IMG/VR virus record: IMGVR_UViG_3300023213_000167
Coordinates: 762-64,761 of that record
Reading direction: 5' to 3' (one strand)
DNA length: 64,000 nt
Origin: a virus
Position numbers and translations under genes: made by a program. Within the stretch, counting starts at the first letter, position 1. The number at the start of each line of letters is the position of its first letter. Positions 14,797-40,421 of the stretch are shown here, piece by piece. Below the pieces are notes generated by a model. The model searched no databases. It was not told the origin of the DNA and saw only the letters and a program-made list of their open reading frames with translations.

Positions 14797-15548
14797 TTCT
14801 TTTCTCCGGGCGGGCCGACGCGGCGGTCCCAGCGGGGATCTCCGTACCGGCCGGCGGGTTTACACTTGTCCCAATAGGGGCAGTTGTCATATCCACAGAT
14901 GTATTCCTGACACAGGGGCAATGTGCTTGGATCGCGCGCCGCAATGGCGTTCTTGAGCAGCTGTACATGCTCACGTACCACCGCGCGTAGGGACACCAAA
15001 TCATCTTCCGAGATCCGTAGTCTATACGCACGAAATGCGGGCGCTGTCTTGCCACTTGTGTCCCTCAGGTTCAGCAAAAGGATCCATAGCTCAGCTTCGG
15101 TCTTGTTTTTGGCTGCCATGTACAGTAGCAGCTGGGAAATATATGCGCGCAAATCGTCTGTGGTGCGGGGTTCCTTGAAAAAGCGCGCGGACTTGAATTC
15201 GGCAACTTCCCCGTCACGGTCCCAGTCCACGCTGTACCAGAAACCCATATCTTCGCTGTAGGTGCTACCGGTGTCAGTCTTACTGAGATCAACCTTACCC
15301 TCCATTGCCCCTAGGACAAAAGAGTGTAGGACCTTACCAATAAGAAACGTAGGCACCTGACGATCAGTGTAAGGGGCAGGTTCCAGGTACTTCCAGAACG
15401 CCTGTAGTGGGTTGAGCAGATCGCTGGCATGAATGCCTTCCGCACGGCTTGAGTCTTGCGACTCAAGCCATGCACGGCTTGCGTCCCTTAGGCGGGCTTC
15501 CGCCGCGGTATTGCGCGACAGACGTAGGGACGCGGGGAGAGAGATCAA
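14769..15548 (-). CDS. PD-(D/E)xK exonuclease (Cas4/RecB-like)
   Basis: HASDL...GKVLH...SVDWDRDGEVAEFKS...QLLLYM and a C-terminal Cys cluster CQEYICGYDNCPYWDKC; start re-called to TTG 15548. Confidence 0.75.
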   Translation of the reverse strand: MISLPASLRLSRNTAAEARLRDASRAWLESQDSSRAEGIHASDLLNPLQAFWKYLEPAPYTDRQVPTFLIGKVLHSFVLGAMEGKVDLSKTDTGSTYSEDMGFWYSVDWDRDGEVAEFKSARFFKEPRTTDDLRAYISQLLLYMAAKNKTEAELWILLLNLRDTSGKTAPAFRAYRLRISEDDLVSLRAVVREHVQLLKNAIAARDPSTLPLCQEYICGYDNCPYWDKCKPAGRYGDPRWDRRVGPPGEKKSPSESDSP

Positions 15549-16022
15549 CCTACGGTGCCTGTAGCTCCGGCACAGGAGTGCCATGGGTAGCCTCGGCAGG
15601 TTCGCCCCAGGCCACACGCTGGCAGGGCAGCAACTCAAACTCACCCGGCTGTATGACACCCTCCTCCAGGTACTCGACAATCTTGGCGTTTGCGTTATAC
15701 ACCAACGCGTCACATTCCGCCTTATCCGCTACAATCACGGCATCAGCGACTGCGCCAAGGTTTAGCAACACGGCAATGAACACCTCTACCAAAGGTTAGT
15801 TACCTCCTGACAAATAATTGAACACGTAAACACTAACCCAGATACCTACACCCGCGCCGAAGCCCCAAATGAGGCCGCCGGCCACGTGCGCGGCGATTGT
15901 CTTAGCTTGCGAGACGAGGTTTGCTAGCATTGTCTGTACCGGCCAGTTTCCGGATAACCCGGGTGGCCGCGGCTCCTTTCGCCTTGATTTTCACCTTGAT
16001 ACCGCTTTCGGGTTTAGACATC

Positions 16023-22494: not shown

Positions 22495-23250
22495 TTACCC
22501 CTTGCTCCCATTCACGATACCGGCGTGGTGTGCTGTACTCACACCCGCTATTTGCGTCCAGGGCTTGGCCGCGGGGAATTTCCCATCGTGCCACAATGCC
22601 TTCAGCTTGGCGGCAGCTTGCTGGACATACCCGGCATCTACCGGCTGGATGCTATGTTTGGGCATCTTGGGCGGGACCGCGGCGTAATTCCCCGCGTTCT
22701 TCTTCCAGAACGCCGCCGTCTCCTCCACGTACGCGGCCTGGGTGTCGATGATACCTTCTAGCATACGCCAGGGATCTGTCTCCCCGTCCCAATACAGCCC
22801 GATGCGGCACAGCAGCGCGTAGGTGCTGACGTGGACGCTGGTGGTCAGCCACGCAGGGTCTAGGTACAACACGCGCCGGTCGCTGTGGCCTTCCACGTGC
22901 GCCCAGGTAGTAGGCGAAATGTCTGCCTTCTTCTCCCAGGCGTGCAGGAAGTCAATGAGTCGGTTCAGGTGCTCGGCACCCATACGGGGGCTGCCCGTCA
23001 GCTGTATCTCCAACGGGAAGCGCGGCAACTTCAGGTCCAGCTGCCCGGGCGCGTACTTCAGGCCGTAGATGGCGGCTTCCTTCTTGTGGTGCTCCGCCCA
23101 TATGATGTCCTGTAAGTAGTCCTTGCACTGCACCGGGAACATCAGCTGTTCATGCTTGGCGTTCAGCCAGGCGAACTTGCAGTGCAGGCCGCTGATTTGG
23201 TTGTACGTCACATTGGGGTGCGCCTTGACGGTAACTGTCTTAACGCCCAT
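22495..23250 (-). CDS. Hypothetical protein of the amidoligase cluster
   Basis: About 250 aa (FAWLN...FPVQCKDYLQDIIWAE); start overlaps the ATP-grasp stop. Confidence 0.55.
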   Translation of the reverse strand: MGVKTVTVKAHPNVTYNQISGLHCKFAWLNAKHEQLMFPVQCKDYLQDIIWAEHHKKEAAIYGLKYAPGQLDLKLPRFPLEIQLTGSPRMGAEHLNRLIDFLHAWEKKADISPTTWAHVEGHSDRRVLYLDPAWLTTSVHVSTYALLCRIGLYWDGETDPWRMLEGIIDTQAAYVEETAAFWKKNAGNYAAVPPKMPKHSIQPVDAGYVQQAAAKLKALWHDGKFPAAKPWTQIAGVSTAHHAGIVNGSKG

Positions 23251-23959
23251 TGACTCCCACGCCTCCCTTGTTTCGATAGAAATCGTGGATGGCCCGGGCG
23301 TACACCTGGATGGTTCCGCCCTCCAGCCCCGGGGCACTATTGACCTCAAAAACGACAAATCCGCCATCCGGCTTCACTCCTATGTCCACGGCCCCAAAGT
23401 CGTAACCTAGCGCCTTACAGGCCTTGTGGCAGGCATCCCTGAGGCCACGCGGGGGATCGTATCCGCCATAGGACAGCTTCCAGCCCGCATTGTGGGCGCG
23501 GAACCGTGGGTTAGGCACCTTACCCTCTTGTGGCACCTTCTTGGCGAGGCGCAACGAGGTCCCGTGGAAGCTATGAACCCTGTATTCCGTGTGCGTGGGG
23601 ACGTACTGGACGTAGTAGTCCCCGGTGGTACGCCCGGACAACAGGTCCTTGGCGCGCTGGTGGTTGTCCACGCGGGCGAGCCACCCTGCCCGTCGCTCTC
23701 GCGAGAAGGGAGGGACGGGTACCCCGCCCGTCTGTAGCTTACTTAGCTCGTGGTACTTGTTCCCGGCCCGGTGGGGGTTCAGCAGGCGCCCCCGTAGGCC
23801 CCCCGGTAGGCCCTCCCCCCATCCCACGAACACGTCTGAGGAGTTCCCCGAAGGGCACAGGCGCTTCGCCCGTGTAGCGCAGCCACCTTCGATACCATTT
23901 AGGGCGGCGACGAGTTCCTTGGCGCCCATGCTTCCACGACGACATACGATGTATATCAT
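23240..23959 (-). CDS. ATP-grasp ligase (RimK/YheCD-like)
   Basis: NKYHEL, EYRVHSF, RAHNAGW, ALGYDFGAVDIG and VFEVNSAPGL motifs. Confidence 0.9.
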   Translation of the reverse strand: MIYIVCRRGSMGAKELVAALNGIEGGCATRAKRLCPSGNSSDVFVGWGEGLPGGLRGRLLNPHRAGNKYHELSKLQTGGVPVPPFSRERRAGWLARVDNHQRAKDLLSGRTTGDYYVQYVPTHTEYRVHSFHGTSLRLAKKVPQEGKVPNPRFRAHNAGWKLSYGGYDPPRGLRDACHKACKALGYDFGAVDIGVKPDGGFVVFEVNSAPGLEGGTIQVYARAIHDFYRNKGGVGVNGR

Positions 23960-24281
23960 CCTTTCCTCACAAGTATGATGGTAACCAGGACGATGAGACC
24001 CATCCACACTAGGAACACAATATCACCTCCGTCAAGACACATGCCCAACACCTCCCACAACGATTTTGACCAGATTTGATAATGTTTACTAGAGTGTTAC
24101 GTACCACCTAAGCACAGAGGACAGCCGGTCTGCTTGTACCGCTTCGTGGCAGGCGGTGGCATGCTCACCCACCACACCTTAACCTCAGGGTCGTACCGAC
24201 CGTGCTTCTCGGCGTGGCAGGTAACTACCCACCACACCTTGCGCCGGCCTCCGTAATGCTCACTGCCCTTGGGCGGCTGGC

Positions 24282-24731
24282 TCACAGATTCGCGCTCCAC
24301 AACACGACCAGATTGGTCGTCTTGGGGTTACGAAACTCCCCGAGCCGCTTCCACCCACTTTCCTCCAGCAGCTTGTTCTCCGCCGCATTGGTGGACAGGA
24401 CCGTGGCCAGCATCATGCCGTACCTCAGACGCCGGGCCGCTTCCATACGGGTATTCAGCAAAACACTGCCGATACCCTTCTTACGAAGGTCTTCCGCAAT
24501 CTCCGCGTGGAAGCTCACCACCACGCCGCAACAGCCAGGTAGCTGCTGCAGGCCGAAAGTGGCGATGTTGCGAGATTCGGTACGTACATCGTACACGCCA
24601 GGCTCGCCACGGCGCTCCACGATGTACGTGTAACCGATACCGGCGGCATCTAGCGACGGTCTACGGCGCATCAAGGCGCCGTTTAGCTCGTGGAGAGGAT
24701 CTGCCTCGGGAACTCCGCTGATCTTACCCAT
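24282..24731 (-). CDS. GNAT-family acetyltransferase
   Basis: AEDLRKKGIGSVLL (acetyl-CoA motif A), TVLSTNAAENKLLEESGW; AGGAG RBS. Confidence 0.8.
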   Translation of the reverse strand: MGKISGVPEADPLHELNGALMRRRPSLDAAGIGYTYIVERRGEPGVYDVRTESRNIATFGLQQLPGCCGVVVSFHAEIAEDLRKKGIGSVLLNTRMEAARRLRYGMMLATVLSTNAAENKLLEESGWKRLGEFRNPKTTNLVVLWSANL

Positions 24732-24799
24732 GTTACGTCTCCTTTCGCTTCCCCTGATGGTATCCGGGGTCCTTGCCACAGGACTCGCAGCCGCACGTC

Positions 24800-25135
24800 C
24801 TAGTCTGAGTCTTCACTCCCGGTGTTCTCTGCTGTCGGCGGCTGAGGCCCTTCCTGCATCGCAGTTGGTTTGGCATAGTCGATGGTCTCCCTGTCGTCCC
24901 CACATGGTGGGAACAGTACGTGAGCAATGATACGAACGTCCCTGATCTTGGACCACTTAACACCACCTATGGCGCCGGGATACCTGGCTTTCAGCGTCTT
25001 CCGGCTCCACAGGCTTTTGCAATGAAACTCGGCGTTTTGCAGTCCCTCGCTGAAATAGTCCAGCATCCACCGTTGCCCCCCGCCGGGCGGATCACACGTG
25101 AACCACACGCCGTATCTGATTACAGGATCAGCCAC
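24800..25135 (-). CDS. Hypothetical protein
   Basis: 111 aa; AGGAGG RBS before the GTG. Confidence 0.55.
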   Translation of the reverse strand: MADPVIRYGVWFTCDPPGGGQRWMLDYFSEGLQNAEFHCKSLWSRKTLKARYPGAIGGVKWSKIRDVRIIAHVLFPPCGDDRETIDYAKPTAMQEGPQPPTAENTGSEDSD

Positions 25136-25144
25136 GATGCCCTC

Positions 25145-26194
25145 CTAAACCAGCAGCGTCCGCCACGCGACGGTTTGGATCGACGTGCACGGACGGAACC
25201 AATTCTCACGGTTCCGCTCAATGACTTGCAGTGCCTTATCGATATCCTGGCAATCGCGCGTGATGAGGATGCGCGGACGCAGACTTGCCAGGCGATCGAT
25301 AAGCTGTTGCCGGTACGAATCGTTGGCCGGTACGCCCTGTGGCTGTTGCTTCTCGGAGCCCGGTCGGTTCTTCACGGCGCTGGCGCTGATGATATCCCAA
25401 TTCACCAATGTGATCTTGGCTAACGCGAAGTACGCGTAGGCCAGCCAGGGATGCGTCAGCCAGGTGGACGGGATGCGGTATTCAATGTGGAAGTACACGC
25501 CGCCCTTGGGGTTCACCGGGTGGTCACTGGCCATGAGACGCACCGGATCACCATTATTCGGACCGTACTTCATGTTACGAGTGATCCGCAGCGGCCACAG
25601 CTGGCACCACATCTCCAGTGGGTACAGCAGGTAGTTCATGGTGAGAATGTACTTCATGGCGCTGAATCGCCGGTAGTTTGCCGCCTCAGCGCCATACCGC
25701 TCCATCGCGTTGACCGTCTCGTCATCAACGTTGTCGGGTACTGGCTTGGTCATGTTATACTGCTTCCAGCCCAACAGAGTATCGTGATAGTAGCGGTTAG
25801 CTTTGCTTGCGACACGTGCCAGGTCCGGGTCGTACACCCAGAACGTGGTGTGGATATGCCCGCCGAGTGGCTCTCCGCTTGTCACGCCCTGCACCCACGG
25901 ATGCGCCAACAGTACCACGTCACGCATGTTCTTGGTGCGACTTAGGAAGTTCTCGGTCTCGGCCAAGCCGTACGCAATATCTAACATATGCCGCCGGATA
26001 TTGTGCGCCGGAGGCGGGCGCAACTCCGCCGTGGCCGCGTGGTTATCCGTGCCGATGAACGAATTCAGTGCCTGCGCCTTGTTAGGGCTGATGACCGTAC
26101 TGGCCGGGATGATGTACGGACTCCATTCCTTAACTCGCGCGAACACGAATTCAGGATCGCTCCCTATTTTGTACAACAGCAGGGATCTACTCAT
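25145..26194 (-). CDS. phiEco32-like COOH-NH2 ligase type 2 (copy 1)
   Basis: IGSDPEF, IGTDNHAATAELRP, PLGGHIH and HIEYRIPSTWLTHP. Confidence 0.85.
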   Translation of the reverse strand: MSRSLLLYKIGSDPEFVFARVKEWSPYIIPASTVISPNKAQALNSFIGTDNHAATAELRPPPAHNIRRHMLDIAYGLAETENFLSRTKNMRDVVLLAHPWVQGVTSGEPLGGHIHTTFWVYDPDLARVASKANRYYHDTLLGWKQYNMTKPVPDNVDDETVNAMERYGAEAANYRRFSAMKYILTMNYLLYPLEMWCQLWPLRITRNMKYGPNNGDPVRLMASDHPVNPKGGVYFHIEYRIPSTWLTHPWLAYAYFALAKITLVNWDIISASAVKNRPGSEKQQPQGVPANDSYRQQLIDRLASLRPRILITRDCQDIDKALQVIERNRENWFRPCTSIQTVAWRTLLV

Positions 26195-26430
26195 GGATCA
26201 TACTCCTCGCTGTACAGAAACACCTCCACCTTGCCCTCAGCCTTATCTACATACCACTGTAGGTGCGCGCCGCAGCCGTGGATACGCGTTCCTCCGTGGT
26301 AGTCCGGGAGTAAAACGTAGCCCGTGGCCGGGATCATGCAGAATGTCTTGAACGGATTGCCCGCCAGGTCGCGCGCGGTTCCTACTTGCCACATGCAACG
26401 ATAACTCCGTGACCCGGGAAAAAGTCCCAT
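26191..26430 (-). CDS. Hypothetical protein
   Basis: 79 aa; ATG 5 nt after a palindrome copy; ATGA overlap with the ligase. Confidence 0.55.
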   Translation of the reverse strand: MGLFPGSRSYRCMWQVGTARDLAGNPFKTFCMIPATGYVLLPDYHGGTRIHGCGAHLQWYVDKAEGKVEVFLYSEEYDP

Positions 26431-26435
26431 GTCGT

Positions 26436-26451
26436 GTCAACCTGGGTTGAC
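26436..26451. repeat. Palindrome copy 1, GTCAAC-CTGG-GTTGAC
   Basis: Read directly; lies in a 22-nt intergenic gap. Confidence 0.9.
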
Positions 26452-26452
26452 G

Positions 26453-27172
26453 TCACAACGTCTTGAATCGGCCCATGAGATTCTTGAGCTCCACGCGGCC
26501 AGGCTTGGGCGGTTGCACTGCCATGAGATTGTTTTTGCTGCACGGGAAGCACAGCTGGCCGTTCTGGCTGAGGCGGGCGTTGATCTCATCATAGCTCGGG
26601 GGCCAAGGAATGAGAGTGCCGCACATGGGGCATGGGCGCTCGGCGCAGGCGTTACACAGACTTACCAGGAACCCGCAATTCTCTGGGATGCGGCGCATGG
26701 CGTACATGTTGGCCCACAGCGCATTGGGCGGCAACAGCACGTATGTCTTGCTCTCGATGTTCCACTTGAGAGACAGCGGGCGCTTGTACCGCGCGTGGCC
26801 GCACACCATGCACACTGCGACCGTGAAGTACGACTCGTTGAACATCCGCGCCAAATCGGCGGGCTGGGTATAGGCTGCCAAGTAGGTCACCGGGTCCCAA
26901 CTGTCATCCACATACGCCCGCTCACTGCCATATGACCACAATGCCGCGTGGCTAGGCTCGTGTAACAGCAGGTCCTTTGTCCATACCCGCAGCCGCTCCA
27001 TCAGAGCGGAGCGTAGGTTTGCAGTTGACAGCGATGCGTTGTGCACCAGGAACGCCAGCACCGCGCCCATGTCAATGGGGGCGCCCTGCCGTATCGCCGA
27101 GGCGAACCTCTCGATTTCGCTTACATTGTCCACTAGGGTTCCGCTCCGAAAGCGCATGTTCAGTCCACTCAT
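26453..27172 (-). CDS. Hypothetical protein with CxxC motifs
   Basis: 239 aa; CMVCGH, CNAC, CPMCG and CFPC; ATGA overlap with the GATase. Confidence 0.6.
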   Translation of the reverse strand: MSGLNMRFRSGTLVDNVSEIERFASAIRQGAPIDMGAVLAFLVHNASLSTANLRSALMERLRVWTKDLLLHEPSHAALWSYGSERAYVDDSWDPVTYLAAYTQPADLARMFNESYFTVAVCMVCGHARYKRPLSLKWNIESKTYVLLPPNALWANMYAMRRIPENCGFLVSLCNACAERPCPMCGTLIPWPPSYDEINARLSQNGQLCFPCSKNNLMAVQPPKPGRVELKNLMGRFKTL

Positions 27173-28647
27173 GGGGTTGTAACCACGTCCCGCGGTATGT
27201 CGGACTTGATGTTACAGAACGCACACCGCAATATCCAGGCATTCCACGTCGCCAACCTAGCCCACGCTCCACACCACGGACACAGGTATCCTCCCGACTT
27301 GTAGGCATTAGTAGTGCCTACAAAGTTGCTTGGCAGTGGCATGGTGAGAAGCAGCCACTCGTAGGGCAGCTTGTGATCCAAGGATGTGGTGCCATCCTCG
27401 CGCTGCGCAGCGGGCAGGCGCACGCTGTTGAAGTTGCGATGCCACCACTTCTTCACGCGCTTGTGCGGGCGGAAGAAGCTGTAGCGGTAAACGCCGCCGT
27501 TGTGCTGCGCCATCCGTCGGAAGTTCCAGTGCCCATATGGCGTGGGTACCCTTAGCTGCATCCCATCGCTGCCATTCTCCAGCAAATTGTTGTAACGATC
27601 CGGATCGCAGTTGCGCCAGTCCATCCGGTGCCGATCGAACTCAGGCAGCGGTTTACTGGGGTCACGTTTGTGGCTCACAGGACGCCACGTAATGTCCCAT
27701 GCTTCCTCACTGTACGTCACGCCATCGCTGTACTTGTTGACGCGCTTGGCTTCAGATTCCGAAGGGCCAGTCTCCGTAATCAGGGTCGTGCTCACTGCGC
27801 AAGAGCGCAGTGGCGTGCGGGTGGGAGCGCCGGTCTTCGACACGGAACCCCCATCGTTTAGTATACGATGCTGTCTTCCCACGCCCCGCGTGTGTGTACG
27901 CGGGTGAAAAAAAGGGGAGCGCGTGACCTTCCAGGCACGCGCAAGCTGCTCATTGGGCTCCAGTACCAGAATGTGGTTATTCGGCACTCGTGTCATGGTG
28001 AGGAACCGTATGTTGGCGATGGGTACCGAAGGCAGCCGTCGTCCCGCCACCGCCGCGCTGCTCCAGTACAGGATCTCCTTCTTGGGATCTAGGAACAGAA
28101 AGACGTCCGCCCCGTCCAGCCGCGCCAGCGCGATGCGGTCACGGGAATTCGCGTTCCAAATAGCCAGCGTGGCGCTGCCTTGCAGAATACTGAGGTAGGT
28201 CAGAGCTGTGTCATAGTCCGTGCCCTGAGACAGCACCAACGGCACCGCGGATGTATCCACTTCAGCGGACCTGTGGTCCTTGTCATAGTAGTCCCACAAG
28301 TCATCGTCGTTGGTGATTTGGCCGTTGTGGACAACCACCCACCCGCCCCGTTCCACGGGATGGTTGTTACGGTTGTCCTTGGCCTCTCCCTTTGTCGCCT
28401 GCCGCGCGTGTACCAGGCCGCGTGGGCTAGAGACAATCTTGTCCCACAACCCGCTGTCGCGCCCGATGGTGCTAATTAGGTGCTCGGCAGGCCCCTGGTG
28501 TTTCTTGATCCGGATGCTGGTGCCCTCCTGAAATGCGACACCCGCGGCATCGGTGCCGCGCAGGCGGTTCGCCAACAGCAGCGCCTGCACGTGGCCCACC
28601 GTAGGCCGCGCATCCCCCCAACAATACCACCCTCCGATTCCGCACAT
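27169..28647 (-). CDS. Class II (Ntn) glutamine amidotransferase with C-terminal extension
   Basis: MCGI N-terminal nucleophile, RGTDAAG, HARQAT, NNHP, VHNG and VDT; C-terminal CPWC...CAFC. Confidence 0.9.
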   Translation of the reverse strand: MCGIGGWYCWGDARPTVGHVQALLLANRLRGTDAAGVAFQEGTSIRIKKHQGPAEHLISTIGRDSGLWDKIVSSPRGLVHARQATKGEAKDNRNNHPVERGGWVVVHNGQITNDDDLWDYYDKDHRSAEVDTSAVPLVLSQGTDYDTALTYLSILQGSATLAIWNANSRDRIALARLDGADVFLFLDPKKEILYWSSAAVAGRRLPSVPIANIRFLTMTRVPNNHILVLEPNEQLARAWKVTRSPFFHPRTHTRGVGRQHRILNDGGSVSKTGAPTRTPLRSCAVSTTLITETGPSESEAKRVNKYSDGVTYSEEAWDITWRPVSHKRDPSKPLPEFDRHRMDWRNCDPDRYNNLLENGSDGMQLRVPTPYGHWNFRRMAQHNGGVYRYSFFRPHKRVKKWWHRNFNSVRLPAAQREDGTTSLDHKLPYEWLLLTMPLPSNFVGTTNAYKSGGYLCPWCGAWARLATWNAWILRCAFCNIKSDIPRDVVTTP

Positions 28648-28697
28648 TACGGCCTCCCCCTTCCCGCGCTCATCCGTTAGGGCTGAGCACGCAGTGC

Positions 28698-29756
28698 TTA
28701 GTACCGTGTGATGCCGTGCTCATTGCAGAAACTGCTCCACCCGTAGTTGTCCTTCCACACCAAGTCTAGGGCGCCATCCTGTGGAAGAAACTTGGGTGCA
28801 GTCATGATGGTGTTAGCCTTGTAGTGCCCGGCGAACTCCCCGCTGACCGCGATACGGCCCTCGCCAGTGTTGATGGCGCGGGTAATGGCTTCCTCTGCGC
28901 CCTTGTCGTGCGCCTTCTCGAACACGGGGAAGTCCATTGCGATATCGCGCATGATGCCTAGGCCCAGGTGGCCCACGGCGGGATGCGACCATACCTCGGG
29001 GCCGGGCGTGCGGTACTCAATGCCCACGAATAGCGGCGGATCGCCGTCATAGAATTTCATGGCCGCATCGTATCTCCCGCGCAGCAACGTGTTGCCAAGC
29101 AGGTTCATCCGCTCGGCCTGGGCCTTGTCCCAATACTTCCCATGCTGCTGCATCCGAAACTCCCCGGCCTGGCCGTAAAACTGGCGCCGCGCCCAACTGG
29201 CGGGGGAGGGATACATGCAAGCAAGAGGCACGCCCAGGTGCTTGTCGCACGCCTTGATGTACGTGGCGACGCGCTCCGCATCTCGCATCCAGGCGTAGGT
29301 TCCGGTGAATGCTTCCAGCAAAGGCACACTGATGTGTAGGTGGCCCCCCGCGTATCGGAAGGGATGCGTCATGGCGTCGATGGGCGGGCACTTATACTGC
29401 ACCGTGTAGGCATCCATACTCGGCTCACACCCGAATTGCTTCACGTCGTCGGGCGCATCTATCATGTCCGCTAGGTCTATTTGCACCGTCGGCAGTGCCT
29501 TGACCGCGAAGCCTTTCGCGGCCATCTTTTGCTGCAACTCCCGCAGAGACAGGATGGCGGTCATAGCCACGCTTTCGCGGCAGGTGTACGCAGCGGCGAG
29601 ATTCAACTCCACCGCGTAGCCGTCACGGAAGAAGTGACCGTAGACCGTCTTTGTCTTGTGGTGCTTATCCCCGAACGCCAGATGCGCAGGGGCAGGCTTG
29701 TCCCCCTGGAACAAAAAGTATTCAGGGTCGGTCCCAAAGTAGAACGGGTACGCCAT
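28698..29756 (-). CDS. phiEco32-like COOH-NH2 ligase type 2 (copy 2)
   Basis: FGTDPEY, DGYAVELN, FGCEPSMDAY, RYAGGHLH, RRQFYGQAGEFR and GIEYRT. Confidence 0.9.
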   Translation of the reverse strand: MAYPFYFGTDPEYFLFQGDKPAPAHLAFGDKHHKTKTVYGHFFRDGYAVELNLAAAYTCRESVAMTAILSLRELQQKMAAKGFAVKALPTVQIDLADMIDAPDDVKQFGCEPSMDAYTVQYKCPPIDAMTHPFRYAGGHLHISVPLLEAFTGTYAWMRDAERVATYIKACDKHLGVPLACMYPSPASWARRQFYGQAGEFRMQQHGKYWDKAQAERMNLLGNTLLRGRYDAAMKFYDGDPPLFVGIEYRTPGPEVWSHPAVGHLGLGIMRDIAMDFPVFEKAHDKGAEEAITRAINTGEGRIAVSGEFAGHYKANTIMTAPKFLPQDGALDLVWKDNYGWSSFCNEHGITRY

Positions 29757-30509
29757 TACCGCCTCCTCTTTACTTGTCCGGATCTATCTCCGCCAACATG
29801 TCAATTACCTCACGCTCCTTGAAATAAAAATTGCTACCGAGTTCTACCGGCCATTCCTCGGTTGTGGCGGGCTCCAGTTTGCCTAGCACAGGTACCTTGG
29901 GTGTATCATCCTGCTTATAATGCTCCGGCAACCGGGCGGCATCAAAGGCGCCGGAGCCGGGCCGCATGGCAGGAGGGGCGACGGGTAGTTCGTAGTGCTT
30001 CAGTTCCTTGTGATGCTTTTCACAGCAGAAACGGCAGAAGTCCCCAATGCAGCGGTACCCTGTGACGGGGTTAACCTTGCAGCCCTCGCTGATACACTTG
30101 CCCCAATTCATCGTATTGGCTCTTTCCCATTGGCGGGCGCGGTGATCCTGACGACCATCGGTGTGGTAGCTCTCGTTAGAACGGAAAACCATCCCACGGC
30201 GCCTCATATTGAGTGACGTCGACGAGTCTTCCCAAGCGCGGACCAACCACGCTACTATGCCCCACAGCAGACATGCCAGGACTATCAGTATCCACATTTG
30301 CTGGCTTAGACTCGGCTCCTCCATTGGCTAGTATCGGCAAACTACGCCGCTCCCCCAAGTGCCTGAGTATTCCCTCTTCCAAAGGAATGAATGTGTCTCC
30401 ACAGTTGTCACAATGATACATCCCCGACTCTTCGCAGTCCCCATAAATTTTGGTGAGGTGCTGCGAGGTGTTGCACTGATAGCACTTAATCTCTCCTGCG
30501 TCCTCGCCC

Positions 30510-30953
30510 TCAGGAGGTTTCTGTGGGCTCATACCCCGCGTCCTTCAATACCTTCCGTAGCGCTTGCACCTGCCTCACGGACAGCCGCGTGGTTTCATAA
30601 CCCTTGTCATGATAAATGCTGCGGAAGCGCTTGGGCGGGAACTTCTTGACGCTTTCGACGATGGCCGCGCGCACGCCATTTTTGTTTGGGCAATCGTCTT
30701 CGCCACACGTGCAAACCCCGTTGTAGCCGGGGATATTCTTAGGTATAGGGCGCACAGTGTTGCTGTAGCACCAGACATGCGCGCCCTGGTCATAGCAGCG
30801 CTGCACGTAGGTGTGCGTGTCCGACTCTAGCTCCGCGAGCAGGCGGTAGGCGGGGCGCCCCGTGAGGGCGCGTAGGCAGTGCAGCGTCAGCCCGATGTGG
30901 TCCATGTCCCGCCACTTCTTCAACAGCACCTTCCAGTCCGTGTCCTTAGCCAT
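30510..30953 (-). CDS. Hypothetical protein with SWIM-like Cys motif
   Basis: 147 aa; VCTCGEDDCP. Confidence 0.5.
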   Translation of the reverse strand: MAKDTDWKVLLKKWRDMDHIGLTLHCLRALTGRPAYRLLAELESDTHTYVQRCYDQGAHVWCYSNTVRPIPKNIPGYNGVCTCGEDDCPNKNGVRAAIVESVKKFPPKRFRSIYHDKGYETTRLSVRQVQALRKVLKDAGYEPTETS

Positions 30954-31198
30954 GTTGTCTTACCCCGTCGCGTCGCTTTCGGTGTTCTTCTTGCCAGGGA
31001 CGGTCAGCATCCGGAGGCAACGGAAGTTTCCCCCCTCGACGATGCCAAGGTACCCCGCCTCGTCACAAATGACGACGGCCAGGTCGTCCGTGACTGCCAG
31101 AATCAAAGCTGGGCTGTCCACGCCGATTGGCCACGCATGGCCGGCTTCCCCGGCGACTCGCTGGACCACCCCTCCACAGAAACCCTTGGTCGTAACCA

Positions 31199-31471
31199 TT
31201 ATGCGTCCCCTCCTCCTTCTATGTACAGATCGTGCTCAACCTCGGGGCACCCGTGATCCCACTCATCTCGTAGGAACACCGTGCGCGGCAGCGGATTCAC
31301 CCGCACCGGCTCACAGCGTGAGATGTTTATTTCTTCGCGGTTGTCCTCGCTCATTTCTTGCATCCTCTCGACCAACGCGGTACGCGCCTGCATACATTCA
31401 TCGTAAGACTTGAACACCCTACCTTCTGTGTGCACGGGTAGGATGGAAATGAGAATAACCCATAGTAACAT
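31199..31471 (-). CDS. Small signal/TM-anchored protein
   Basis: Hydrophobic N-terminus then FKSYDEC. Confidence 0.55.
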   Translation of the reverse strand: MLLWVILISILPVHTEGRVFKSYDECMQARTALVERMQEMSEDNREEINISRCEPVRVNPLPRTVFLRDEWDHGCPEVEHDLYIEGGGDA

Positions 31472-31498
31472 GAGCGTTAGCCCTTCTAGACGGTGTCG

Positions 31499-31855
31499 TT
31501 ACTTCTTAGGGCAGGGGCAGGTGCCGCTGTTGCAGTAGCGGTGATCTTTGAACGCTACCCGGTGAAAATTGAGGAACGTCTCGGCGGTGCTGTGATACTG
31601 ACCTCCTTCGCGTGGATGCCGCCACAGGTCGCGGTTACGCGGATGCATTTGGTAACCGTGCCAGATAAGCATCTTGCGCACCCACATGCCTATCTCACGT
31701 GACACGCCGTCTCGCTCAAACGTGCGCGGGCGCGGCGCCACAACAGGATCGACAATGACCTGAGCATCTTCCGGGGGTTGCAGCTTAGCGGCTTTGTCAG
31801 CTAGTTCAGTCTGCCCGCCACGACGCAAACCTTCAACGTAAGCAGCGTAGCTCAT
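31499..31855 (-). CDS. Hypothetical protein
   Basis: 118 aa; AGGAGAGGTG RBS; C-terminal HRYCNSGTCPC. Confidence 0.6.
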   Translation of the reverse strand: MSYAAYVEGLRRGGQTELADKAAKLQPPEDAQVIVDPVVAPRPRTFERDGVSREIGMWVRKMLIWHGYQMHPRNRDLWRHPREGGQYHSTAETFLNFHRVAFKDHRYCNSGTCPCPKK

Positions 31856-32801
31856 GGTGCCACCTCTCCTAACCGAGGAACTCCCGAGGCAACTGGTACT
31901 GTCGTTCCGAGGCTACTACTGAAGATGAACTACGTCAGAGACATCTACAGGTGTCAATTTTCCCAACACGGGCACCACAATAGAGTCGTCCCGTCCGCGC
32001 GGTACGTCAGGGGGAACCTTCTTCCGCAGCGCAGGCAACGCCAACCCACCCGCCACCTTATTAAATGCATGATTAGCAGGGTCCCAATGCTGCTTAGGAC
32101 GGCGCTCACGACGGCTATCGTAATGTACACGGGCCGCGTCTATCCTTTCCCGCGCATCCGCGCGGTGCCCCACGTGTTCACGCGCGTTACCCACGATTAA
32201 GACCGTTCGCTGCCCAAAGCTGGGCAAATGTCAGGATGATGCGGGCCTCCTGCGGAGTCAGCTTGTTGCGCGCCTCTATTTCCGCAAACCACGCACTGAG
32301 AATCTCGTTGGGCACCAGCTTGGGATGTTCCAAAACCTCATAGCATTTCTGCGTAGTGGTGTCATACAAATCCCAATGATCGAAGAAGCTGCCCTCATCT
32401 ATGCACAGCTCAAAGCGCGGCTTCGGTTTTACCTTGGGCATAACACCCCCCGGTGTATGAAGTCACAGTACGCCTTGTTGGCCCGGGACCATTTCCGCGT
32501 CTCCTTACATCCGCTGCACAATCCCTCCGGGTCCAATACAAACTGACCAGCCGTGGAATCAAAGTTGATCTGGACCAGGGACGTATTGCACACCGGGCAT
32601 GGCGGTGCAGCCAGTCCGCGATAGCGCCACCTAGTCCAGAGGTCCAACGCCGGTTCTCCTACTTGCCGAAGCCACCGAGCGGCGAAATGATGCGTGTTCC
32701 GGTGATGATGCTGTGTAAGCCGAGACCCACGAAGCTCAGCGCCATCACGATGACGACAGCAGCTACGAAGATACCTAGTGCCTTGAACACGTGTCCTCCT
32801 T

Positions 32802-32817
32802 GTCAACCTAGGTTGAC
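32802..32817. repeat. Palindrome copy 2, GTCAAC-CTAG-GTTGAC
   Basis: Immediately upstream of an AAGGAGG RBS on the minus strand. Confidence 0.9.
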
Positions 32818-33530
32818 ACGGCGGGGCCGATTCCCCGCCGTGCCGCACAGGAAACGCACACGACACTACCTACACCTACGCCATCACAAAAGGCATTTCG
32901 TGTAGGAGGCAGAGACATTCGCGATCATCCCCATCCGCGACGACCGCCGGGTCCCCTGCCGCGGGCATCACAGGTACGCCGAGGGTGTTACCGCCACGGC
33001 ACCTGTGACCTGCATCCCCGCCCTGTAACCCCACCCGCGCCCATTCTCCCATCCTGAGTTGCGAGTGTCCCCCCTGTTACTTCCGCCGGTAGCAGAAAGC
33101 ATGGGGTTTGGAGCCCCAGAGACCTCTGCGTCCCGGTACTACGTTGGTCAGGCTTTTACGTGTCACCGTAGGGTTACCGGCGACGACCCACCCTCTCTCA
33201 GTGCCCCTTTTGACAGCTTTGGGGCATCCCCTAGCCTGACAAGCGGCGCCGTACAACAGCACCGCCTCCCCAAGTCAGCGTTAGCCTCCCTCGGGGGTAC
33301 CTGGCCCTGGGGTTCTGTGCATCCCGCGAGAGTATTAGTCAAGCGTGGCGCGTGAAACCCCGGCATCCAGTCACTACAGCCGTTTCCAGCCCCCGGCCTG
33401 CGTTATCCTCGTCATGTATCGACGGTACGCCGCAGAACAGCCACCGAAGTAGCCTACCGGGTGCGTACTTTGGCATCGGCGTATAACCCCACCGTCGGGT
33501 GCGTGCGCAGCCGAGCACGCCTCGGATGCG
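32817..33530 (-). ncRNA. Candidate large structured non-coding RNA (~700 nt)
   Basis: No ORF with a credible RBS; many helices including UUCG- and GAAA-capped hairpins and two 8-bp long-range stems; directly follows a tRNA-like element. Confidence 0.5.
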
Positions 33531-33532
33531 TA

Positions 33533-33601
33533 TGGAAGGACTCGGGGGGATTCGAACCCCCAACCGCGTTTGGCGGACGCGCTTTAAGTCACCCTAGTCC
33601 T
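33533..33601 (-). tRNA. Aberrant tRNA-Gly(GCC)-like element with CCA end and no D-arm
   Basis: T-arm GGGGG-TTCGAAT-CCCCC, arm CGCGT-CCGCCAA-ACGCG, 7/8-bp acceptor, then U-CCA; only 12 nt where the D-arm belongs. Confidence 0.5.
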
Positions 33602-34101
33602 ACATCAAGCCAGACCAGGAAAGTCGCGCGCAGGTGGCCCACAGAACTTGACTAGCGTTAGCCCGTCTCTGCTATACCTGCGTCCGAGCCCCGTACAACG
33701 ATATCGTCCGTTACTTCCGCGGGCAATTCTACCAGTCGCGCAGGGGTTTCATGGCCCGCCTCCTTTTCCCAGGGTGCACGCCAGACACCATCCACGCCAA
33801 GTATCATGTCGACAATAGCCGGCCCCGCGCCAGATAGCCAGTCCTCAAAATTACGCGCGGCAATCACGGACTGTATCCCCAAATAACCGTAGCCAAAAGC
33901 CGCGCAATGCGACTGGCGTGAACGTAATGCAGCTTACCTGCGTATAGGGCGTCGTTCTGGGTCTCGATAGCCTGGCGCTCTTTTTCGGTGAACGTTACGG
34001 TGTAGATCACCTCACCACTGGGCGTTGAAGTGCGCTCCATGATACCCTCCCCCCTGTCTATGGTTAAGCCGCAGCCCCGCCTCACCTTTCTGCCTTACTA
34101 T

Positions 34102-34174
34102 TACCAACGGATGGATTTGGACCACCAACCCCCGGGCTCCACGGCCCGGTGCTCTGCCATTGAGCTACGTTGGC
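34102..34174 (-). tRNA. Aberrant tRNA-His(GUG)-like cloverleaf
   Basis: Acceptor GCCAACG/CGTTGGT, D-arm GCTC-AATGGCA-GAGC, anticodon stem CCGGG/CCCGG with an 8-nt loop CCGTGGAG, T-loop TCCAAAT; no encoded CCA. Confidence 0.7.
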
Positions 34175-34412
34175 ATATTGTCGGTAAAGCGGGGCTACGA
34201 CACCCTAATCTTCCATAGCCTCACGGATCATGAGGCCATCGTCGAAATTCAGCCAGTACAGCCGATGCCAGAACGTGTTGGGTATTACCAGCCGCTTGAA
34301 AGGTTTGCGCGCGGGAAGAACGGAGCACTCCTTTCTTTCCTCGCATTTCGCCGAGCGTGAGCCCGACTTGGCGGACCGAGCGGGAAGCCGGCCCGTCGCG
34401 CGCGAACCCTTC

Positions 34413-34601
34413 TTACCCCTCATGGTCAGCGCCCAATCCTCCATTCATCGCGAGAAAGACGCAGTCGCAGCAATCCTCCGGCCCCTCCGCGATGCACTGT
34501 TCGATCAGGTTCTGCCGGAGCTCGAACGGGAGGTTCCGCTCGTCTGTCCCCAACGACTCTGCCACTTCCGCGATAGGGCACACGAAGATTTGCTCTACCA
34601 T
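34413..34601 (-). CDS. Cys-rich microprotein (paralog A, 62 aa)
   Basis: MVEQIFVCPIAEVAESLG...PFELRQNLIEQC...DCCDCVFLAMNGG. Confidence 0.6.
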   Translation of the reverse strand: MVEQIFVCPIAEVAESLGTDERNLPFELRQNLIEQCIAEGPEDCCDCVFLAMNGGLGADHEG

Positions 34602-34762
34602 TGGTCCCCCAACCCCGGCCCGCCGTTCATGGCGAGCCATGCGCACGTGCAGTCATTCCCGCATATGTCGATCATGTCGTGCCGTAGCTCCTCGGGTACG
34701 GCGCTTACGTGCAACCCTAGCTCGGACGCCAACCAGTCTATCGGACACGCGGCAGTTGCCAT
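34595..34762 (-). CDS. Cys-rich microprotein (paralog B, 55 aa), not in the ORF track
   Basis: GGGGAGG RBS; MATAACPIDWLASELG...PEELRHDMIDICGNDCTCAWLAMNGG. Confidence 0.65.
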   Translation of the reverse strand: MATAACPIDWLASELGLHVSAVPEELRHDMIDICGNDCTCAWLAMNGGPGLGDQW

Positions 34763-36710
34763 CCTCCCCTCACCTGCGGTGTTATTGTTGTACTACGCCC
34801 GTGACACACACCAGCCGTGGCCGCACAGACAGCTACCCCGTATAAAGGGCAGTTCGTGCCAAGCGCAGATACAAACAAGGGCGCCACGGGGATACCAAGC
34901 TTTAACCAAGCACGCTACACTTGGCGGGCGTCCTGGCGGCGTTTCCTCTTCTACGCCTGATCCGGCCCATGCTAATAGCGATGGCGACCGTATGTCAAGG
35001 TTGGGGGCACAGTCACTGGCCGCCCCCCGGGCGTTGTACGAGTGTTTACTCCCAATATGCCAGCACGATGGCGTGGCTGGGGTCCACGTATCCTAGAAGC
35101 CACGGATCACTGACCGGGTTGAAGGTGGAGTACATCGGCGCGGCGACCTTGAAGCACCGGAACAGCCCGGTACGGCGGGCTTCCTCATACTTCAGTAGCG
35201 CCTGATCGGGGATGTGGCCGGTGTAGGAGCCGATGTCTTCCCAATCCACGTGCCGGACGTTGAACAGCCGGAACGGAATCGTCTTCCGGATGCGGTCTCG
35301 CAACGTACCGATGTCCATGATCAGTCCGAACTGAGCTTCCGCCAGGTCCCAGCGGCCCCGCGTCTGCTGCCCGGCCAAGTCTTGGCGGATTTCCGCCACC
35401 TTCGCCCTGTCCTCCGCCGCTTCACATGGTGCCGTCTCTACCTTTAGCATCCCGCTTCCTCCTGTGAAAGAAGTTACACCACGCACGGTTGTTGTCGCCG
35501 CCCGCTTCCCCGCCCATAGCTCCATTGAACAGCCCGTTGTTGCGGCGGTTCACTTCGCTGTCACACGCCCCCCGGGTCGCGGCCATGTCTTTGTGATACC
35601 CGCACAATTCTCCAATACCACGGCTGCGGACGGGGTAGCACTCGGGGCAATCTTGTGGGCTCATAGCACCTCCCCGGATGGGATGATAATGTCCGTGATA
35701 CGTGCCTCTGGAGGCAGCGGAGCTGGCGGGTCCGCGTGGTACCTCTGCTCCGCGGCAACGGCCTTGTCGAGCCAGACCAGTGCCGCGGCGTCACGGCCCT
35801 CGTACGCGTCGCGCAGGGCCATCGCGAAGTAGCACTTGGCGCGCGGGGGAAGGTCTCGCACGCCAGGCATGGTCATGAACATGGTGACCGGGATGACGGG
35901 CACCGCAACGATGTGTGGTGGCAACTGTTTCACCAGGTCGTTTCCTTCCATACAGGCTTGCCCACTTCCACCAGGTCACTGCTCCACGGGCAGCCGACAA
36001 CCTTGTCCTCGGCATCTCGCGTGAAGTGCAGCATCATGCGAAAGATACTGGGCCTACTGGTCACCGTCATCGGGGCTAATTGACTACAGCCCCCGCACCG
36101 GCCAAAAGGGCGCCGCGTTAACACCGGCATGGCTTTACCCCTTTCCCCCTGTCCACGCCTCCTCATCTGCAGGGTTCAACAACGGGACGACGGGCGGGCG
36201 TGGGTCGCGCGTCCCCCCATTCTCATAGAACCGTTTCACGACGTCCGCAGACTCTCGAAACTCCACGCCACGGTCATCGTTGCCCGGATGCGGACTGCGG
36301 TACTTCTTCCCGCCCATGAGATTCTTACGCCGTCTCATGCGTACCTCCCCGGCTTACGCCGGCCGTCCGGCAAGTGACACCCGCACGTCAGCAGCGGCGG
36401 GGTGGTCCCCGCCGTGCTGCGCGTTGTATCCCAACGCTTGCGCGCCTTCCCGCGTCCATACACGCGCACCATGTCATGCCACAACGCGCCAAGATACAAC
36501 GTCAGCTTTTGCCGCTCCGCCACGCTCAGCACGTTACCGCACGCACGCGTGGATGATGTCAGCCTTGACCTCGTACAGGATGTTCTTAATCTGAGCTATC
36601 TCGCCGTCGCTGAAAGCCGCGGCGACGCCCGCCGCCGACACCAGGAAGCCAAAGGCCACTCCCGCTATGAACTTTAGCATGTCTGCTCACCTCCTCCACA
36701 CGAAATTCGT

Positions 36711-36726
36711 GTCAACCCCGGTTGAC
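36711..36726. repeat. Palindrome copy 3, GTCAAC-CCCG-GTTGAC
   Basis: About 13 nt upstream of a GGAGGAGGTG RBS on the minus strand. Confidence 0.9.
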
Positions 36727-38113
36727 AGCTGCGGTCCTTCCGCGCAGCTGTCTGTACAACAGCGCCGGTACTCCTGGGTACGGACCCAGGCATACATCAG
36801 CACACACACGAGGATTATCGCCCCCGCGTAGTGTACCCACGTCTCGAATGGGCTACGCACCCGCACGGCTCACCTCCCGCCCGCGATCTCATCCCGCAAC
36901 AGATGAGAAGGTACACAGCCATGCCGCCCGAGGAATCCAGCATACTCCACGACGATTGCTTTGTTCGGGTCGGCACCGTACATCATGTACGCGTGTAACT
37001 CGCCCACGCTGAAGGATTCCCGGCAGTCCATCCACCAGGCACCAACGGTTGCGCCGTGTGCCCATCCGATGTGGAACGCCGACGAGCCTGCGCGCCACTG
37101 CGAGACCAGCACATTCTCCGCGATGACCGGCGGCTCATCACCGGCACACGCGATGCTGGCGAGGACAAATATCGCGACAAGCGCGGCCAGTCCCGCCACT
37201 ACCACAAGTGTTAAACGCTCCGGTTTCATATGCTCTCACCTCCCCCCTCCCAGGTGCAATAGCCCGTAGTGTGCGGCCCCAGGTGCTCTATTTCCTTGGT
37301 GCAAATGCTGCCGTGCTCGCACTCCACCGAACAAAACCCCAACCTACGCCTCATCTCCGCGAAGATGGGGTGGCGGAGAATATGCCCCAATATCTCCTCC
37401 GTGGCGCCCTCGTCTGGATCGTAGTCATCCATCATGGACTCCTCAGATGACGATGGAACCAGTCGTCAACCAGCCTAACCGCGAGCGGAAACGCGCGCCC
37501 CGATGGGCTATAGTACCAGATGGCAAGGATGGGGTAGTACCCCAACGCCGCACAAGACACGGGATACAAGCCACTATGTTCACGTAAGAGGCGTACCGCG
37601 GCGAAGCGGCCACGTAACGCAGCCCCACGCGACGCGTGTTCACAATGATGTGGGCACAGTAGCGACATAGGTCAAGAGGCGGGGGCCGTAGCGGGTTTGT
37701 CATCATCGCCATGTTGTGCCCCTCCCGTGGCCGCCGGGTGATTGTTCGGCGGCGCCTGATGCCGTGGACACCACGTGTAGTAAGGGAGCAAACAATGCGT
37801 CGTGCCTGCATAACACGCGCATGTCCACTCCTTCCTACACGCCGTGTGGATACAGAAGTGCGCCTTCACGCACGCACGTACGCCAACAACCTGCGCCACC
37901 AAGACGCACGCTGCAACGCCTCTCGTTCCAACACGTGCAACCGTTCACGCACGAAGGAGATTGTCCCGTGTAAATCCTTGTCGGTCATCCCGCGGACGGC
38001 CTCAGCCTCACGCGCGAGCCACGAGGCGTCTACGCCCTGCGGTATGTGCGTGACCGTGGCGGGCACCTGTGCCGACAACGCACATTTGCCCCTATGCGTG
38101 AATACCACCCACG

Positions 38114-38545
38114 TCACACGCCGTCCACGACCGCCAGCAGCAGTCGTGCCTCCTTCACCCGCTGATGCGAGACAGCCCGCTGCTCATACACCCGTTTCTT
38201 GGCGCGGTAATCCGCGCACAGGTCCTGCCGTTCAACGCGCGACAAGCCTGACGCCTTGAGGGCGCCATTCAACGCCCAACAACGTGCCGCCTCACGGCTG
38301 TACTTGTCCTTCGGGTTATACTTCACCGAAAAGACAACAGCGTCGGGCACGGTGCACGGTCCCTTGGTATCTGTGCGTTCGCACAGTCCTGGGTGGACGG
38401 TGCACGTCGTGCCTGGACCCGGCGGGTAAAGGCCCGTCGGGTGCGGCATGTCGGGGACGTGGTGCCAGTGCGCGCTGTACAACGTTCCATCCGGCGCGTC
38501 TAGCCTCAAAAGCGTTTCCCCCTGATACTGAGCACGTAGGTGCAA
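38114..38545 (-). CDS. Hypothetical early protein
   Basis: 143 aa; KYNPKDKYSREAARCWAL; GTGA overlap with the next gene. Confidence 0.55.
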   Translation of the reverse strand: MHLRAQYQGETLLRLDAPDGTLYSAHWHHVPDMPHPTGLYPPGPGTTCTVHPGLCERTDTKGPCTVPDAVVFSVKYNPKDKYSREAARCWALNGALKASGLSRVERQDLCADYRAKKRVYEQRAVSHQRVKEARLLLAVVDGV

Positions 38546-38799: not shown

Positions 38800-38815
38800 G
38801 TCAACCGGGGTTTAC
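38800..38815. repeat. Palindrome copy 4, GTCAAC-CGGG-GTTTAC (1 mismatch)
   Basis: Upstream of the GGAGGTGA RBS of the gene starting at 38760. Confidence 0.75.
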
Positions 38816-40340: not shown

Positions 40341-40343
40341 GTC

Positions 40344-40359: not shown

Positions 40360-40367
40360 ACGCAAAC

Positions 40368-40401: not shown

Positions 40402-40421
40402 CGTGAGCCGCGCCGGGACGA

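Follow-up and report, generated by a model that had tools for sequence, protein, structure and literature searches.

An amidoligase gene block in a tailed phage as a probable lineage-specific variant of the phiEco32-type cassette

What does a phage make with several amide-forming enzymes encoded side by side at the end of its early region? The question is raised by IMG/VR virus record IMGVR_UViG_3300023213_000167, a 66,321-bp viral contig with a CheckV completeness of ~75%, from which a stretch of 64 kb (positions 762 to 64,761; the window) was analyzed. The window has a G+C content of ~58% and encodes terminase, portal and tail-spike-like proteins, a family-A DNA polymerase, and a DnaB-like helicase; judged from this gene content, the source virus is a tailed phage of the lytic type. 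An earlier note on the same DNA had described window positions 22495 to 29756 as an expanded amidoligase pathway containing two COOH-NH2 ligases, a glutamine amidotransferase (GATase), a GCN5-related N-acetyltransferase (GNAT), and an ATP-grasp enzyme. The map of open reading frames (ORFs) and family scans place all five genes on the minus strand within these positions, between an early region punctuated by palindromes and the replication genes. Every ORF of the block, the small ones included, has the codon-position pattern GC1 > GC2 < GC3. Cassettes of this kind are listed for phages phiEco32, 7-11, RIO-1, PA11, tf, MR299-2, LUZ24, PaP3, and CW02 (PMC5498523, PMC6256558, PMC10580990), and the passages on the cassette in these papers trace its prediction to Iyer et al. 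2009 (Mol Biosyst 5:1636) and Hardies et al. 2013 (J Virol 87:9189). The block is probably a lineage-specific variant of the phiEco32/LUZ24/RIO-1-type amidoligase cassette, whose three ligases would act in the cytoplasm early in infection. The cassette is of a kind already known; what is new is the predicted docking of one of its proteins, unkB, on the second ligase.

Enzymes shared with the phiEco32-type cassette

The first gene of the block encodes ligase 1 (28698–29756, minus strand as for all genes of the block; 352 residues). It matches phrog_3815, annotated 'COOH.NH2 ligase', with an E-value of 5.5e-23, and its score against PF14395 (23.8 bits) lies just under the 25-bit cut-off. A tblastn search with ligase 1 finds annotated COOH-NH2 ligases in 165 isolate phage records at 26–32% identity, including those of Bruynoghevirus, PA11/TC6, tf, and Klebsiella phage Klyazma. 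Seven orthologues share the invariant residues D10/E12, R44-D45-G46...E50, H139/H141, R190-R191..Y194-G195, E199/R201, and E247-Y248-R249. Ligase 2 (25145–26194; 349 residues) scores 32.5 bits against PF14395 over its N-terminal third only, and its ESM Atlas features reach 0.94 to PF14395 clusters. The Atlas model of residues 1–349 has TM scores of 0.56–0.65 to clusters of GCS2, Dop/Pup ligase, and glutamine synthetase (GS). The invariant residues are D13/E15, G48-D50-H52, E57-R59, H113/H115, R206-N207..Y210-G211, and E238-Y239-R240. On the basis of the predicted structure and Pfam, ligase 2 has a full-length GS-like fold carrying the acidic, histidine, and arginine motifs. Five motifs recur in the two families: GxDPE, DG...E in ligase 1 or E-x-R in ligase 2, HxH, R(R/N)xxYG, and EYRxP. 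They are taken to be the motifs with which GS-fold ligases bind metal and ATP.

The two ligase profiles are linked weakly by hhalign (probability 61%, E 8e-5), and both genes are kept in all 11 related loci described below. These alignments indicate that ligases 1 and 2 are ancient paralogues. The earlier note had called them divergent duplicated ligases, and divergent they are; the hhalign value and the presence of both in 11/11 relatives speak against a recent duplication. Neither profile finds anything among Protein Data Bank (PDB) sequences at E ≤ 1, and tblastn with ligase 2 gives no match in 50,697 phage records. As annotated, the cassettes of Klyazma, tf, and phiM6 combine the PF14395 ligase with a ligase of the Amidoligase_2 family (PF12224). 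No PF12224 match occurs anywhere in the 66-kb record. The idea that ligase 2 is a disguised Amidoligase_2 was ruled out with hhalign, which detects no similarity to tf_21 or Klyazma orf051. The Amidoligase_2 slot is filled here by a deep paralogue of the PF14395 type.

The third recognizable enzyme is a class-II, N-terminal nucleophile (Ntn) GATase (27169–28647; 492 residues), as in the published cassette. Its PF13522 match (5e-14) covers residues 1–200 only. The AlphaFold2 (AF2) model has a pLDDT of 81.6, and residues 1–250 superimpose on the glutaminase domain of GlmS (1xff) in a VIA search with a Z of 26.4 and a root-mean-square deviation (rmsd) of 2.6 over 223 aligned residues (Foldseek 1e-13). 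The nucleophile Cys2 and the residues R30-G31, H107-N108-G109, and D131 are kept in 24 homologues. The note had named absent catalytic residues as what would undo its assignments; on alignment the catalytic motifs are kept in the enzymes of the block. A variable, disordered linker (residues 252–314) joins the GATase domain to a C-terminal module of ~175 residues that is confidently modeled and carries an invariant CPWCG...RCxxC zinc ribbon. This C-terminal domain is novel, which is not a claim to a new fold. It reached a Z of only ~3 in the VIA search, which was run with the whole model and barely tested that part, and only the N-domain of the GATase resembles the amidotransferases of tf and Klyazma. 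Full-length relatives number 29, with 29–39% identity over ~98% of the length, and a scan of the viral_contigs set found no close relatives.

The GATase domain also bears on what the pathway handles. EgtC is among its structural matches (VIA Z 21.4, rmsd 2.5, 209 aligned residues; NCBIfam 2e-4). The pairing of a GS-like ligase with an amidohydrolase is the logic of the Puu pathway and of the EgtA/EgtC steps of ergothioneine synthesis. This resemblance raises the possibility of a small-molecule pathway, in which γ-glutamylation would make or detoxify a free metabolite such as a γ-glutamyl-protected amine or polyamine or a short nonribosomal peptide. The GATase would then be a γ-glutamyl amidohydrolase, and the GNAT would acetylate an amino-acid-like intermediate in this phage; the GNAT's weak best matches are indeed amino-acid N-acetyltransferases. 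Canonical cassettes fit such a pathway through a BtrG/AIG2-like γ-glutamyl cyclotransferase (GGCT) and a C26 γ-glutamyl hydrolase. In contrast, the variant studied here lacks both: the record, which is ~75% complete, has no PF06094 match for an AIG2/GGACT-type GGCT, the annotations of the 11 related loci include none, and the block has no Pfam match to a C26 hydrolase. The GATase carries a zinc ribbon where small-molecule amidotransferases have a synthase domain, and a free-metabolite pathway does not need the protein-ligase docking predicted below. We regard the small-molecule pathway as possible and clearly less probable than the cassette reading as a whole.

The ATP-grasp protein (23240–23959; 239 residues) matches the RimK-like family phrog_2599 at 1.7e-25. 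Its ORF extends to 24007, and translation probably starts at 23959. A tblastn search finds it in 195 phage records, including the phiEco32-like phage SU10. The best PDB matches of its profile are RimK/α-L-glutamate ligases (7qys, 5zct, and 4iwx; E ~1e-5), and the stretch GAVDI...VFEVNSAPGLEG aligns with the RimK structures, with D192, E205, and N207 invariant. The Mg/ATP motif xVDI...EVNSxPGLEG of RimK, the α-L-glutamate ligase of ribosomal protein S6, is aligned and invariant in the phage enzyme, which differs in being 239 rather than ~300 residues long. Matches to the R2K clade (PF14243/PF18299) are weaker than the RimK-type ones (R2K_3 16.5 bits and R2K_2 15.5 bits, against cut-offs of ~26).

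The ATP-grasp family is also where the published proposal for the cassette class can be weighed. The cassette has been described as a seven-gene peptide-bond or 'peptidoglycan modification' module and proposed to change the cell wall so as to prevent superinfection (PMC5498523 section 16; PMC6256558; PMC10580990, citing Iyer 2009 and Hardies 2013). Applied to this block, the ligases and the GATase would alter or amidate cytoplasmic stem-peptide precursors, and the changed surface would block superinfection. The chemistry has a precedent in the glutamine-dependent amidation of peptidoglycan peptides by MurT/GatD (PMC3267633), and the ATP-grasp profile also matches D-Ala-D-Ala ligases, more weakly than RimK. 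However, the nearest solved relatives of the ATP-grasp protein are the protein-modifying RimK enzymes, and family scans reveal no Mur-ligase, Fem, transpeptidase, or membrane-associated component in the block. The model gives no role to the zinc-ribbon partner predicted for ligase 2, and our literature search found no muropeptide data for such phages. Peptidoglycan modification is therefore an unlikely function of the block.

Taken gene by gene, the block resembles the cassette of phiEco32, LUZ24, tf, PA11, RIO-1, and phiM6 in its homologous PF14395-type ligase, class-II GATase, and RimK-like ATP-grasp enzyme, in having a second GS-fold ligase, in its interspersed phage-only genes of no assigned function, and in its place immediately before the primase/helicase and PolA genes. 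The homology of ligase 1, the GATase N-domain, and the ATP-grasp protein to cassette genes of the cultured phages tf, Klyazma, and phiM6 bears out the link that the earlier note drew to the computationally described phiEco32-type system. Its word 'expanded' does not fit. The published cassette as standard already contains two GS-like ligases along with a class-II GATase and an ATP-grasp enzyme (PMC5498523, PMC6256558). In Klyazma, tf, and phiM6, the cassette regions are annotated with the PF14395 ligase, Amidoligase_2, class-II GATase, RimK-like ATP-grasp, a GGCT, and several proteins of no assigned function, in some cases joined by a second amidotransferase or a C26 hydrolase, and lie directly before a primase/helicase gene. 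Compared with these, the present block has a PF14395-like rather than a PF12224 second ligase, has neither the usual GGCT nor a C26 hydrolase, carries a zinc-ribbon module as the C-terminal half of its GATase, and contains a GNAT inserted in this phage only. A blastn search with the whole block against the 50,697 phage records gives no match at the DNA level.

The lineage to which the block belongs was defined from the contigs of eleven of the 29 full-length GATase relatives, with which the window proteins were compared by tblastn. The order of the core genes in these loci is ligase 1, GATase, a protein in the unkB position, ligase 2, and ATP-grasp, followed in most by a homologue of unkC. These six genes form the conserved core, which closes the early region immediately before the replication genes. 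In each of the 11 loci the core precedes the genes for a Toprim primase and for the DNA polymerase, a PolA fused to a uracil-DNA glycosylase (UDG)-like domain. In the window as well, the genes for the Toprim primase, PolA, and the helicase lie downstream of the block, which places it at an early/middle position in a podovirus-like genome. This position just before the primase and PolA genes, constant in this lineage and shared by cultured phages, is what speaks for a module that modifies DNA, nucleotides, or replisome proteins. Family scans of the block detect no nucleic-acid-binding, glycosylase, or transferase domain, the C-terminus of the GATase is unconserved and lacks an acidic tip like that of single-stranded DNA-binding protein, and adjacency in a compact genome may reflect expression timing only. 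A role directed at nucleic acids or replication is the least probable of the explanations considered here.

The spacing of the genes only partly bears out the coupled stop and start codons reported for the block. Three junctions overlap: GATase/unkB (ATGA), unk79/ligase 2 (ATGA), and ATP-grasp/unkC (11 nt). Elsewhere spacers of 9 to ~135 nt separate the genes, including 50 nt between ligase 1 and the GATase and 22 nt, with a palindrome, between unkB and unk79. The longest gap in the block is the ~135 nt of non-coding DNA 5' of the ATP-grasp gene.

unkB and its predicted contact with ligase 2

The gene between the GATase and ligase 2 encodes unkB, a zinc-ribbon protein of 239 residues (26453–27172) recognized by its CxxC pairs and its synteny. 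A protein of 230–310 residues always occupies this position between GATase and ligase 2 in the related loci. A library of 1.8 billion proteins contains 78 representatives of the family. No family match to unkB was found in Pfam, PHROG, or NCBIfam, and the ESM Atlas look-ups of unkB and of unkC, the last protein of the core, scored ≤ 0.85 and were uninformative. Comparisons of unkB and unkC with the unassigned cassette genes of phage tf and, by tblastn, with the Klyazma region gave no detectable similarity. The conserved features of unkB are four invariant or near-invariant CxxC pairs and a C-terminal tail of the form L..V.PPKP.R..LR.

unkB was tested as a partner protein because many loci show translational coupling across GATase, unkB, and ligase 2: the GATase/unkB junctions overlap or abut in most of them, and unkB and ligase 2 overlap in several. 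Complexes were predicted with three chains (unkB, the GATase C-domain, and ligase 2) and custom alignments, alongside three controls. The ipSAE for unkB and ligase 2 was 0.62, the median of runs at 0.64, 0.62, and 0.00, compared to 0.00 for the best of the three controls. The score was lost when ligase 2 was replaced. This mark was reached by 58 of 80 solved complexes and by 2 of 110 mismatched pairs, counts that hold only roughly for a prediction with custom alignments and three chains. Contact agreement was at least 0% overall and 76% between runs 1 and 2, and the partner pLDDT was at least 39. In the predicted interface, the unkB tail (residues 214–239) lies on ligase 2 residues 34–48, 60–83, 249–253, 313–317, and 343–349. 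The unkB residues making the contacts, L216, V219, P221, P222, L229, L232, and F236, are its most conserved non-cysteine positions in an alignment of 51 sequences. These models predict that the conserved C-terminal tail of unkB docks on ligase 2. The lysine of the tail motif, K223, is kept in only 36 of the 51 sequences and lies outside the confident contacts, which favors a role of unkB as adaptor or carrier over a universal lysine acceptor site. No confident contact of the GATase C-domain with unkB or ligase 2 was predicted, which is not evidence against binding.

A carrier system offers a comparison for such a tail. LysW is a zinc-finger amino-group carrier protein with a C-terminal tail that is served by LysX, a RimK-family ATP-grasp ligase. 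The block is like this pair in having a zinc-binding protein whose tail is predicted to dock on a carboxylate-amine ligase and a RimK-family ATP-grasp enzyme in the same cluster, for which the LysX match is weak (1.2e-3). It is unlike it in the size of unkB (~240 residues), the four CxxC pairs, and a basic, hydrophobic PPKP tail compared to the acidic EDWGE tail of LysW. The predicted dock is the GS-fold ligase 2 and not the ATP-grasp protein, and the likeness is one of features rather than of sequence similarity.

unkC and the acceptor of the ligases

The last gene of the core encodes unkC, recognized by its homologues and its AF2 model (22495–23250; 251 residues). Its ORF extends to 23367; the start was moved to M40, probably at 23250, in agreement with the starts of the homologues and with a GGGAGG ribosome-binding site ahead of that codon. 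Homologues follow the ATP-grasp gene in five of the related loci (L005, L007, L012, L013, and L014), and one lies upstream in L004. A word-indexed sequence search with unkC finds only itself, and a profile search finds only five relatives. C42, D48, W134, R149, D205, H241, and G244 are invariant. The AF2 model is confident (pLDDT 89.2, pTM 0.86) but resembles no known fold clearly. Foldseek finds nothing in the PDB at E ≤ 0.001, and a shape search of the Atlas gives TM ≤ 0.37. The top rows of the VIA search are all GS-fold ligases at weak scores: PafA (Z 6.3, rmsd 4.2, 174 aligned residues), Dop (Z 5.9, rmsd 4.2, 170 aligned residues), GshF (Z 5.2), and GS (Z 4.7). The ligase motifs are absent from unkC, and hhalign detects no similarity to ligase 1 or ligase 2. 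The invariant C42, D48, D205, and H241 suggest a different catalytic chemistry. BFVD yields one uncharacterized phage protein only. The AlphaFold database (AFDB) clusters also yield one uncharacterized relative, along with an entry named 'LAGLIDADG domain-containing' (E 3e-7, TM 0.54) that was not trusted as a family assignment.

Several of these features recall the Pup ligase PafA and the deamidase Dop. There, as here, two paralogous GS-fold ligase-type proteins belong to one system; the Atlas model of ligase 2 has TM scores of 0.62–0.64 to the Dop and Pup-ligase clusters; the best, though weak, structural matches of unkC are PafA and Dop; and ligase 2 has a predicted protein partner that would bind it through a C-terminal tail. 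Unlike the Pup system, the block has no Pup-like protein with a C-terminal GGQ or GGE and no proteasome genes, and the likeness is at the level of the fold, which is also common to GCS2 and glutamine synthetase. A specific version of this comparison is a protein-directed or carrier-protein ligation system in which unkB, docked on ligase 2 by its PPKP tail, would be a LysW-like scaffold for the building of a Glu/Gln-type amide chain or an adaptor delivering a host or phage protein to a PafA-like tagging enzyme, and unkC, with its invariant Cys, Asp, and His, a new trimming or transfer enzyme replacing GGCT. We hold this version to be improbable as it stands. If true, it would give the podovirus amidoligase cassette a protein substrate.

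The explanation that we prefer is broader, the lineage-specific cassette variant with three ATP-dependent carboxylate-amine ligases that would be active in the cytoplasm early in infection. The ligases would activate carboxylates as acyl-phosphates and build a short amide chain of the glutamate/glutamine type on one acceptor. The Ntn GATase would either give ammonia from glutamine to one of the ligases, for amidation, or trim a γ-glutamyl amide as EgtC does. unkB would be an adaptor or carrier subunit bound to ligase 2 through its conserved C-terminal tail. The likeliest acceptor is a protein or a protein-tethered intermediate, at somewhat below an even chance; a free small molecule is a possible but less likely one, a cytoplasmic peptidoglycan precursor is doubtful, and any other acceptor is more doubtful still. 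A protein is favored because of the likeness to RimK and to PafA/Dop, the zinc-ribbon partner, and the lack of a small-molecule synthase domain on the GATase.

A number of observations weigh against this explanation. Full-text literature searches found no experimental identification of the cassette product, in agreement with the earlier note, and no experiment on any member of the cassette class, so that the chemistry is read from family membership. The ATP-grasp protein and the GNAT score far under the NCBIfam equivalog cut-offs (25.6 compared to 143 bits for ATP-grasp/RimK), and ligase 1 falls short of its Pfam cut-off by the small margin given above. One of the three complex runs scored 0.00, the fold of unkB is poorly predicted (pLDDT 40–51), and the GATase C-domain made no confident contact in the models. 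Genes such as GGCT may lie off the ~75% complete contig, and the GGCT and C26 γ-glutamyl hydrolase of the canonical cassettes are more typical of small-molecule γ-glutamyl metabolism.

Phage-specific genes, promoter, and neighboring features

The GNAT gene (24282–24779; 165 residues, with a possible start at M17) matches PF00583 with 22 bits, above the cut-off of 20.7, and contains the acetyl-CoA motif A as LRKKGIGS. The protein weakly resembles phosphinothricin, arsinothricin, and methionine-sulfoximine (MSO) acetyltransferases. Searches by tblastn of the isolate phages gave no match. No GNAT lies inside the cassette in any of the 11 related loci, and in three (L006, L008, and L012) GNAT genes are found 2–3.5 kb upstream. 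These encode a homologue of 46% identity in L006, a weak homologue in L008, and a different GNAT in L012. Their coordinates are 4804–5250 and 6198–6572 in L006, 6539–7027 in L008, and 1440–1805 in L012, a loose association. The distribution marks the GNAT gene as a mobile early gene that entered the cassette in this phage alone. An N-acetylated product, as the note had proposed, is therefore not a property of the pathway and would at best be a peculiarity of this one phage. Surface masking and anti-defense, which the note gave as examples of a purpose, are conjecture.

Two further genes have no homologue in the 11 related loci by tblastn and no family match. One encodes unk79 (26191–26430; 79 residues), which overlaps the start of ligase 2, has a coding-like GC3, and lacks a clear ribosome-binding site. 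The other encodes unk111 (24800–25135; 111 residues), which starts with GTG behind a TAGGAGGG ribosome-binding site. The GNAT, unk79, and unk111 are insertions specific to this phage that would at most add an N-acetyl cap. Between the GNAT and ATP-grasp genes lies a small cysteine-containing ORF (24097–24300, minus strand; 67 residues from a GTG, or possibly 47) with a C...H...CPLC pattern and a coding-like GC3.

At the other end of the block, a cysteine-rich ORF of 184 residues (29770–30324, minus strand) lies directly upstream of ligase 1. Its stop codon is 13 nt before the start of ligase 1, which has a strong AGGAGG ribosome-binding site. The ORF has no Pfam, PHROG, or NCBIfam match. Similar ORFs were found by tblastn directly upstream of ligase 1 in five loci (L005/L006, L008, L012, and L013), and this position makes the cysteine-rich protein a possible seventh member of the module.

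The promoter beyond the block separates it from the replication genes. A σ70 promoter (TTGACA-17-TATAAT; 22485–22457, minus strand) with 12/12 consensus positions and a TG-extended −10 element lies directly after the stop codon of unkC. It starts the unit on the primase side, and the block therefore belongs to the preceding early unit. The consensus suggests that host σ70 drives the replication genes. The palindrome GTCAAC-N4-GTTGAC occurs in 10 copies in the window (9 exact, 1 with one mismatch) compared to 0.19 expected by chance. The copies span 26436–42596, all in the early region, and the copy nearest to the replication genes is the one at 26436–26451 (strandless), between the unkB stop and the unk79 start.

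Other genes nearby were noted in passing. In the replication module of the window, the minus-strand ORF at 11504–12067 encodes a dATP/dGTP diphosphohydrolase N-terminal domain (PF18909, 6.1e-22), the ORF at 10034–10561 is RuvC-like, and that at 14769–15713 has a weak PD-(D/E)XK nuclease match. Among the relatives, the fusion of a UDG-like domain to family-A polymerase (PF03167 + PF00476) is found at 17295–19814 in L002, 16527–19091 in L004, 13545–16019 in L007, and 11887–14538 in L012, and the two parts are separate adjacent genes in L005. RNA-repair genes occur near the cassette, with an RNA ligase (PF09414) downstream in L002 (15744–16646) and RtcB upstream in L009 (6063–7241). L004 encodes a σ70-like protein with Sigma70_r4 domains near the early region (1069–2109), as in phiEco32-like and Klyazma phages.

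The amidoligase cassette, predicted in 2009, is found in hundreds of lytic phages, among them candidates for therapy from the LUZ24/PaP3 and phiEco32 groups. Cultured phages of this kind are a better test bed for its product than a metagenomic contig. The loci compared here form a lineage of the cassette that is distinct and widespread and has conserved accessory proteins of its own. The predicted interaction of the unkB tail with ligase 2 is a new, testable point that could tell action on a protein from action on a small molecule.

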